Shown here: positions 14,802 to 15,000 of the stretch, piece after piece
How the letters are laid out: every line of letters starts with the position of its first letter
How positions within the stretch are numbered: the first letter of the stretch is position 1
Virus record (IMG/VR): IMGVR_UViG_3300013099_000022
DNA length: 61,930 nucleotides
Source: a virus
Strand: one strand, 5' to 3'
Translations under genes and position numbers: made by a program
Notes under the pieces: model-generated
The model's input: only the letters and a program-made list of their open reading frames with translations
What the model was told of the DNA's origin: nothing
The model's database searches: none

Positions 14802-14978
14802 TTAATCTGTTATCTCAAGTTGTTCATCCCAAATATAACCTGTTGCCTTTTCTATTTCTTTTTTACTTCTTTTTTTAATTCGCTTTGAATAAAATTCAAT
14901 TATTTCTGGGCACATTTGCTCACATCCGAGAGGTTCAACTAAACAATTTTTACATGGATCATCCATATCCTCCTCCAT
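14802..14978 (-). CDS. Small Cys-motif protein (58 aa; not in the ORF track), DPCxxCLVxPxGCExxC family
   Basis: Minus-strand translation from ATG at 14976-14978: MEEDMDDPCKNCLVEPLGCEQMCPEIIEFYSKRIKKRSKKEIEKATGYIWDEQLEITD, stop at 14802-14804; motif shared with 1404-1610, 53036-53272 and 53555-53848. Confidence 0.45.
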   Translation of the reverse strand: MEEDMDDPCKNCLVEPLGCEQMCPEIIEFYSKRIKKRSKKEIEKATGYIWDEQLEITD

Positions 14979-15000
14979 TCTATTAGAAAGAGAATATGGA
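14963..15000. repeat. Palindromic element copy 2 (CCATATCCTCCTCCATTCTATTAGAAAGAGAATATGG), overlapping the start codon of the small Cys gene
   Basis: Shares CATTCTATTAGAA[A/G]GAGAATATGG with 12121-12157; imperfect hairpin. Confidence 0.6.

Follow-up and report, generated by a model that had tools for sequence, protein, structure and literature searches.

The DNA analyzed here, a stretch of 61,930 nt from a virus (IMG/VR record IMGVR_UViG_3300013099_000022; hereafter the window), has a G+C content of 27% and carries 82 of the 84 genes of an ORF-based gene call on its minus strand. It codes for a multisubunit RNA polymerase beta-like protein and for gyrase/topoisomerase subunits, and also encodes a MoxR-like ATPase together with its VWA partner, and a protein resembling the major vault protein (MVP). 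The sole matches among GenBank phages were at ~70% nucleotide identity, to the MVP gene of the metagenomic huge-phage records LR756500/1/3, where it lies in a different context; the window can therefore be regarded as part of an uncultivated large phage. Against the same phages, the MoxR-like protein gave matches of <30% and the small gene that is our main subject gave none. No related locus was found in IMG/VR with the MVP-like protein or with an alignment of the small gene's family as queries. A near-identical ENA contig (L001) serves below for comparison.

Read along the minus strand, the locus comprises a gene of a 310-aa family (15014-15950), a small gene with a four-cysteine motif (the Cys gene, 14802-14966), an MVP-like gene of 849 aa (12174-14723) and a gene for a MoxR-like AAA ATPase (10833-12056). 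Two hairpins of similar sequence lie between these genes: hairpin B (14963-14999), preceded by the stop codon of the 310-aa-family gene, and hairpin A (12121-12157), with the MoxR-like gene downstream of it. The 310-aa-family gene is split in the window into ORFs of 287 and 52 aa by a 2-nt deletion and one substitution at ~15816-15820 relative to L001, in which it is intact (312 aa); the split may reflect misassembly, variation within the population or a site of frameshifting. The MVP-like product matches PF11978 (5e-19; major vault protein shoulder/SPFH-type). Its gene differs from that of L001 by an 18-nt change in the copy number of a tandem EIPKGD/KETS repeat at ~14150-14265 (849 vs 843 aa). 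The MVP-like protein has >6,600 homologues at E <1e-20, mostly ~45% identical and from bacterial metagenome-assembled genomes (Desulfobacterales, Myxococcota, Planctomycetota and others), and they carry the labels major vault protein or SPFH; the top-scoring matches are phage copies (54-58% identity). A large inverted repeat, with 48-nt arms that are 85% complementary and 20 nt apart, occupies 16588-16703 in a 237-nt gene-free gap, and its inner part is predicted to fold at ~-22 kcal/mol.

An earlier note on this DNA had proposed that an unannotated minus-strand ORF of 58 aa (14802-14978) encodes a member of a Cys-motif family. The ORF exists, and our results confirm that, although left out of the annotation track (as a sub-60-aa ORF), it is a real, conserved gene. 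The motif PCxxC[LI]xxPx(x)CxxxC occurs near the N-terminus of four ORFs in the window, all on the minus strand, against 0.01 occurrences in shuffled sequence. Besides the Cys gene, these are 1404-1613 (PCEKCLVKPTCSERC), 53036-53272 (PCRECLVAPTCTELC) and 53555-53848 (PCIDCLILPTGCSEIC); the latter two have a C-terminal CxxC...CxxC half, which is zinc-ribbon-like in 53036-53272. Searching a library of 1.84 billion with a profile built from the four paralogues yielded 25 small proteins, eight of them full-length orthologues of the 58-aa ORF that share the pattern ...DPCxxCLVxPxCxxMCPxVIEFYKKRVRKRSKxEVExATGYxWEDD... and come from related uncultivated phages. By BLASTP, the Cys gene is 56-61% identical to the orthologues P0122 and P0123 (E 1e-23 and 8e-23). 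The basic stretch KRVRKRSK that follows the four-Cys motif is conserved. No Pfam or PHROG family covers the Cys-motif proteins, and an AlphaFold2 model of the Cys protein (mean pLDDT 66) was too weak for use. The probable start codon of the paralogue at 1404-1613 is a GTG with GGAG upstream, and an unlisted ORF for a small membrane protein (MNNTGINFMGLLTILFITLKLINVIDWSWIWVISPLWLPLAIFLW...) lies directly upstream of it, at ~1578-1800 on the minus strand.

Hairpin B is composed of a 5' arm at 14999-14986 (CCAUAUUCUCUUUC), a loop at 14985-14977 (UAAUAGAAU) and a 3' arm at 14976-14963 (GGAGGAGGAUAUGG), and an extra U-A pair between 15000 and 14962 extends it to a helix of 14-15 bp. The stop codon of the 310-aa-family gene, upstream, precedes it by 13 nt. 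Two ATGs are candidates for the start of the Cys gene, and either would place the start within hairpin B: both of them, and the tract GGAGGAGG (14969-14976), fall within the loop and 3' arm. All bases of GGAGGAGG and of the second AUG are paired, while the first AUG is at the boundary between loop and stem. An independent assembly of the same phage (L002) breaks within the Cys gene, its position 1 corresponding to ~14836 in the window, ~130 nt from hairpin B, which might reflect population heterogeneity at the Cys junction.

The earlier note had taken the first ATG (14976-14978) as the start codon and had described a GGAGG just downstream of it, both inside the hairpin. Their location in the hairpin holds, and the GGAGG is more likely the Shine-Dalgarno (SD) sequence of the second ATG (14964-14966) than an element downstream of the start. 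SD-like cores were found upstream of 49 of 82 genes in the window, most often at a spacing of 7 nt; the first ATG is without an SD, and the second is preceded by GGAG at a spacing of 6 nt. The gene call on L001 gives a Cys gene of 54 aa, and the N-termini of the orthologues, ML(P)LxxPC or MKxPC, agree with the second ATG. The relatives described below differ on this point, L018 having the first ATG alone and L017 the second alone. The second ATG is the likelier start (MDDPCKNCLVEPLGCEQMCPEIIEFYSKRIKKRSKKEIEKATGYIWDEQLEITD; 54 aa, 14802-14966), the GGAGGAGG tract is its probable SD, and the annotated start is probably four codons too far upstream.

The energy calculation that the earlier note had called for gave a predicted fold of -21.7 kcal/mol (z -3.85) for the minus-strand RNA of hairpin B, and -10.9 kcal/mol (z -0.11) for the plus-strand RNA. 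For hairpin A the prediction was -24.9 kcal/mol (z -7.1), and about -25 kcal/mol on either strand (z about -7). Hairpin B folds on the minus strand only, because all three differences between A and B become G.U pairs in the sense RNA. The description of B as an imperfect hairpin thus applies to the DNA or to a plus-strand RNA and does not apply on the sense strand, where the three mismatches are G.U pairs. Taken as bare hairpins, the copies, including those of relatives, have predicted energies of -17 to -23 kcal/mol. No Rfam family reached its gathering score, and nothing meaningful appeared at E values up to 5.

We also considered whether the loop could be a promoter. A scan for sigma-70-type promoters found no site at the element; the phage encodes its own RNA polymerase subunit and may use promoters of other types. 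By inspection, the hexamer TAGAAT in the loop has no -35 partner, and neither L017 nor L018 has it. Intergenic DNA shows no enrichment of loop k-mers, and the hairpin contains no conserved promoter-like motif. On the basis of the k-mer result and the lack of a sigma-70-like site, the loop was rejected as a promoter. The promoter-like motif that recurs in the window (TTTAGAACAAAATATA) is absent at the hairpin element. A recurrent intergenic sense-strand motif, TTTAGAACA(A/T)(A/T)(A/T)(A/T)ATA(AA), has identical copies at 27713-27728 and 37697-37712 on the minus strand, with 0.68 sites expected by chance, and similar sites in the gaps at 39586-39646 and 45679-45840, often immediately 3' of a hairpin of canonical terminator form. 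This candidate phage promoter does not occur near hairpins A and B.

Hairpin A is a perfect palindrome of 14+9+14 nt on the minus strand (5' arm 12157-12144, loop 12143-12135, 3' arm 12134-12121), which an extra A-U pair between 12158 and 12120 extends. The earlier note had placed it upstream of the MoxR gene, and it does lie 64 nt before the MoxR-like ATG; it also lies just 15 nt after the stop codon of the MVP-like gene. Its tail is U-rich, with six U in the 8 nt past the stem. An ORF of 38 codons (12020-12136, minus strand) begins at the ATG of hairpin A, extends 37 nt into the MoxR-like gene and is probably a vestige or a chance ORF. We compared this ORF and the 64-nt spacer with the C-terminal parts of Cys orthologues and found no significant similarity. 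The idea that copy A comprises the hairpin and the C-terminal remnant of a split Cys gene was rejected, there being no significant DNA or protein similarity to the orthologue tails. The 38-aa ORF ends in WLQKNKNTLND and resembles the tail of P0123 (WLQKNKNTLxD) because conserved 5' coding sequence of MoxR is read in another frame.

As the earlier note had observed, B is a near-copy of the palindrome A, with 34 of 37 positions identical. A search of the window allowing up to 3 mismatches returned exactly these two sites, against 0.00 expected (100 shuffles). They are direct repeats ~2.84 kb apart that bracket the Cys gene and the MVP-like gene. Their flanks are unrelated, so that the repeat is the ~37-nt hairpin alone, and a duplication larger than the hairpin was rejected on this ground. 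The wider search for copies that the earlier note had suggested found none beyond the known sites. Exact and IUPAC pattern scans of IMG/VR gave no further copies, a scan of JGI metagenomes gave one match (L005, an unrelated GC-rich chance hit), and a scan of GTDB genomes (596 Gb) gave 14 pattern matches, all of them low-scoring, unrelated SD/anti-SD hairpins. A covariance model (R1), run over the window and 17 related loci, returned known sites only. One unrelated bacterial hairpin of the same design, at 160-208 of L021 (Enterococcus hulanensis), has an anti-SD arm that pairs with GGAGGAGAAUAUAUG, which suggests that SD/anti-SD start-site hairpins of like sequence type arise independently.

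Lookups of orthologues yielded a closer clade of relatives (L013/14, L015/16, L017 and L018/19), whose MoxR-like proteins are 70-81% and 310-aa proteins 66-71% identical to those of the window. In these four other lineages, the same hairpin occurs at the start of the orthologous Cys gene, at the junction with the 310-aa gene. An alignment of six copies from five lineages over a 15-pair helix has 97.8% of its cells paired, compared with ≤59% for slid registers of the helix. Five pairs have changed on both sides, and none of 500 shuffles reached the observed covariation score; compensatory changes in L017 include U-A to G-C and C-G to U-A. Hairpin sequence identity between lineages is 63-92%, like that of the adjacent coding DNA, and the helix has therefore been kept while its sequence drifted. 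This conservation, with compensatory changes, in four other lineages indicates that the start-site structure is under selection. The DNA palindrome is broken in five of the six copies at positions that remain G.U-paired in the sense RNA only, which points to selection on RNA.

The loop varies in length and sequence across lineages. A, B and L015 share the loop UAAUAGAAU exactly, and L013 departs from it at one base; in L017 and L018 the loop is 7 nt and 5 nt long, respectively. The upstream stop codon lies 9-14 nt from the helix across lineages. In four of the five, a purine-rich, SD-like tract precedes the stem by 0-2 nt. The U tract 3' of the stem is not conserved across copies, and B is without one: the maximum count of U per 8 nt after the stem is 3 in B, L017 and L018, 4 in L015, and 6 in A and L013.

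A more distant clade (L006-L010; MoxR-like identity 57-59%) has a different arrangement. Its Cys gene, of ~105 aa, overlaps the end of a NADAR gene and is without a start-site hairpin. Strong GGGAGG...CCTCCC hairpins, unrelated to A and B, follow the 324-aa gene and the MVP gene of this clade, in the order 324-aa gene, hairpin, MVP gene, hairpin, 344-aa gene, NADAR gene, Cys gene, MoxR-like gene. These genomes have a hairpin family of their own, GGGAGG(N)...CCTCCC, whose members recur at several junctions, among them the two that flank the MVP gene (for example, L007 5940-5965 and 8540-8566; L008 5945-5972 and 8535-8560), and near-identical hairpins of this family sit at different junctions in different genomes.

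In the closer clade, the 310-aa gene is followed, after a gap of 26-45 nt, by the Cys gene and then by the MoxR-like gene or one extra gene; this downstream order rests on L013/14, L017 and L018, as the contigs of L015/16 and L019 stop shortly past the Cys gene. The Cys gene is directly upstream of the MoxR-like gene in L013/L014 and L017. Where their contigs reach, the closest relatives have one hairpin at the locus and no MVP-like gene; within the closer clade, the second hairpin copy and an MVP-like gene at the locus are found in the window alone. The distant clade carries its MVP gene in a different slot. Across L006-L019 and the window, the segment from the 310-aa gene to MoxR is a hot spot at which genes are gained and lost in an otherwise syntenic block, its contents being Cys; Cys and a 333-aa gene; Cys and MVP; MVP, a 344-aa gene, NADAR and Cys; or MVP, a 335-aa gene and a 64-aa gene. 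Given that the window alone has the second copy and the MVP-like gene at this locus, that the flanks are unrelated and that there is no third copy, A is best read as a copy left by rearrangement. The suggestion of a recombination footprint of gene duplication thus survives in part: the repeats bracket the gain of MVP, as expected of a footprint at A, and the hairpin alone is repeated, which does not fit gene duplication. The MVP-like gene has no GC anomaly and a foreign origin was rejected on composition; because its composition is unremarkable, it probably came from a similar phage or was acquired long ago. The order of the rearrangement events is what we infer from these comparisons.

We propose that a stem-loop at the junction locks the start of the Cys gene and probably caps the upstream transcript, and that copy A is a footprint 3' of the MVP-like gene; we give this reading a probability of roughly 0.55. 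In the sense (minus-strand) transcript, an RNA stem-loop would form at the junction of the 310-aa-family gene and the Cys gene. Its 3' strand would be the initiation region of the Cys gene, with the GGAGGAGG SD and both candidate AUGs, and its 5' strand, in the short intergenic gap, would act as the matching anti-SD/anti-start. On read-through transcripts, the helix of 14-15 bp, at ~-20 kcal/mol, would lock the ribosome binding site (RBS) against independent binding of 30S subunits. A terminating ribosome that stops 9-14 nt short of the helix would not open it, given the mRNA channel of the ribosome. Translational coupling through unwinding by the upstream ribosome was rejected, with the upstream stop codon 9-14 nt before the helix and hence too far away. 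Synthesis of the Cys protein would stay low, or would depend on some step in which the 5' arm is removed or opened. The helix probably doubles as a 3' hairpin (an attenuator or decay barrier) of the upstream message, since in all lineages of both clades the 310/324-aa gene, and likewise the MVP gene, is followed by a strong hairpin of some kind. Copy A would be what remains of the rearrangement by which the MVP-like gene came to lie between the Cys and MoxR-like genes, a copy of this ~37-nt module, and would now most likely serve as a terminator or 3' stabilizer of the MVP-like gene, 15 nt after its stop codon and with a U-rich tail. The effects of the helix on translation and on transcript ends are inferred from the predicted structure. 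Of the shared control of two loci that the earlier note had envisaged, the structured start region holds for the Cys gene; the sharing does not appear to, as copy A is unique to this genome and what lies downstream of it shows no detectable relation to the Cys gene.

The element might instead be purely a terminator or 3'-end stabilizer, of the 310-aa gene for B and of the MVP-like gene for A, with an overlap of SD and AUG that is incidental and forced by the short gap. We consider this possible, though on the whole unlikely. Both copies are G+C-rich stem-loops shortly 3' of stop codons (13 nt for B, 15 nt for A), strong hairpins stand behind the 310/324-aa gene and the MVP gene in each lineage of either clade regardless of the next gene, tails with six U in eight are found in A and L013, and a Cys gene located elsewhere is without a start-site hairpin. 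The constant feature may be the hairpin after the 310/324-aa and MVP genes, and the overlap with the Cys start a by-product of the 26-45 nt gap. However, the U tract is not conserved (three in eight in B, L017 and L018), whereas clear terminator-like hairpins with A tracts and long U runs exist in intergenic DNA of the window at 27751-27800, 45796-45845 and 55396-55445 on the minus strand; classical termination would thus be secondary or copy-specific, and most plausible for A. Moreover, the 3' arm is exactly SD and AUG in all five closer-clade lineages while the 5' arm co-varies with it, and a helix of ~-20 kcal/mol over the RBS must affect initiation whatever else it does. An origin of the hairpins and of the likeness of A and B by chance in an AT-rich genome is barely credible: short SD/anti-SD palindromes do occur sporadically in unrelated bacterial genomes, as the 14 low-scoring matches in 596 Gb attest, but it is refuted by the shuffles, in which zero matches are expected, by the fold z-scores of -3.9 and -7.1 and by the covariation in four other lineages.

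A role at the level of DNA is doubtful. The element could be a palindromic site for a dimeric protein, or a recombinogenic boundary module resembling the promoter-early stem-loop cassettes (PeSLs) of T4-type phages, through which exchange moved the MVP-like gene in or out. The two direct copies do lie on either side of a 2.84-kb segment whose presence varies among relatives, with the hairpin alone repeated, and the gene content between the 310-aa and MoxR-like genes differs in almost every lineage; PeSLs, too, span the upstream stop codon, a stem-loop and the following SD and start, and mediate shuffling (PMC2839356). Yet the palindrome is broken in five of six copies at positions that pair as G.U in the sense RNA only, just two copies are present, no promoter component was found, and homologous exchange over 37 nt, while possible, is here putative. 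That the element is a translational operator to which a protein binds, perhaps the small basic Cys product itself, in the manner of the MS2 coat/replicase operator or of T4 gp32, gp43 and RegA, appears very unlikely. The start codon in or beside the loop, the sharing of the loop UAAUAGAAU by A, B and L015 with a single difference in L013, and the conserved KRVRKRSK stretch after the four-Cys motif would suit such an operator, but the loop shrinks to 7 nt in L017 and 5 nt in L018, a perfect helix of 14-15 bp would block initiation without any protein, and RNA binding by the Cys protein is purely putative, its AlphaFold model being weak (pLDDT 66). A broader scheme, in which an exchangeable junction module combines a translational operator (possibly read by the four-Cys protein) with a recombination handle that captured the MVP cassette and set ribosome entry to the MoxR/VWA operon, is distinctly improbable.

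The start-site stem-loop adds a cis-acting RNA structure backed by covariation, and with no Rfam match, to an AT-rich clade of uncultivated phages without prior knowledge of gene control. The gene that it precedes belongs to an uncharacterized four-Cys family, and a sub-60-aa ORF that had been missed is now supported as a gene. The locus also provides a concrete case in which a regulatory hairpin of ~37 nt marks the borders of a gene gain, that of the MVP-like gene, akin to PeSL-mediated shuffling in T4-type phages. Current ideas are not overturned by these observations, whose value lies in the annotation and comparative biology of phage genomes.

Several known systems share parts of this design. 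The hairpin of the MS2 replicase operator is short, with 7 bp and a bulge, and binding of the coat protein is needed for repression. Hairpin B is like the MS2/Qbeta replicase operator in that a hairpin right after the preceding gene holds the start codon of the next, and differs in that the protein partner of the window hairpin is hypothetical. It resembles Rho-independent terminators as a strong stem-loop a few nt past a stop codon, with U-rich tails in A and the L013 copy; unlike them, B and two related copies are without a U tract, and the 3' arm consists of coding sequence and RBS. PeSLs carry a sigma-70-like early promoter and number ~50 copies per genome (PMC2839356, PMC4122927). The window element is likewise an intergenic module in which an upstream stop codon, a stem-loop and then the SD and start of the following gene succeed one another, with repeats that border indels and variable gene content; it differs in having two copies in 61.9 kb, no recognizable promoter, and SD and AUG within the stem rather than after it, and the 17 related loci contained no copies beyond the orthologous site. 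In T4 genes 25 and 38, which have split initiation regions, the AUG is free and 3' of the hairpin (PMC3014915). The purine-rich SD-like tract near the stem in four of five lineages could similarly approach the base of the helix, whereas the AUGs of the window are in the loop and 3' arm. Hairpins that sequester the RBS are also known at the initiation regions of T4 e, soc, 49 and I-TevI and of Aeh1 mobE, and a T4 late promoter within the 5' arm yields transcripts that escape the block (PMC3014915). The window hairpin differs from the T4 e type in its longer, perfect helix of 14-15 bp and in that no such promoter was found. In common with the T4 e, I-TevI and mobE hairpins, it is a stable local helix that pairs the SD and/or AUG of a small, dispensable-looking gene reached by read-through, and its structure is conserved among related phages.
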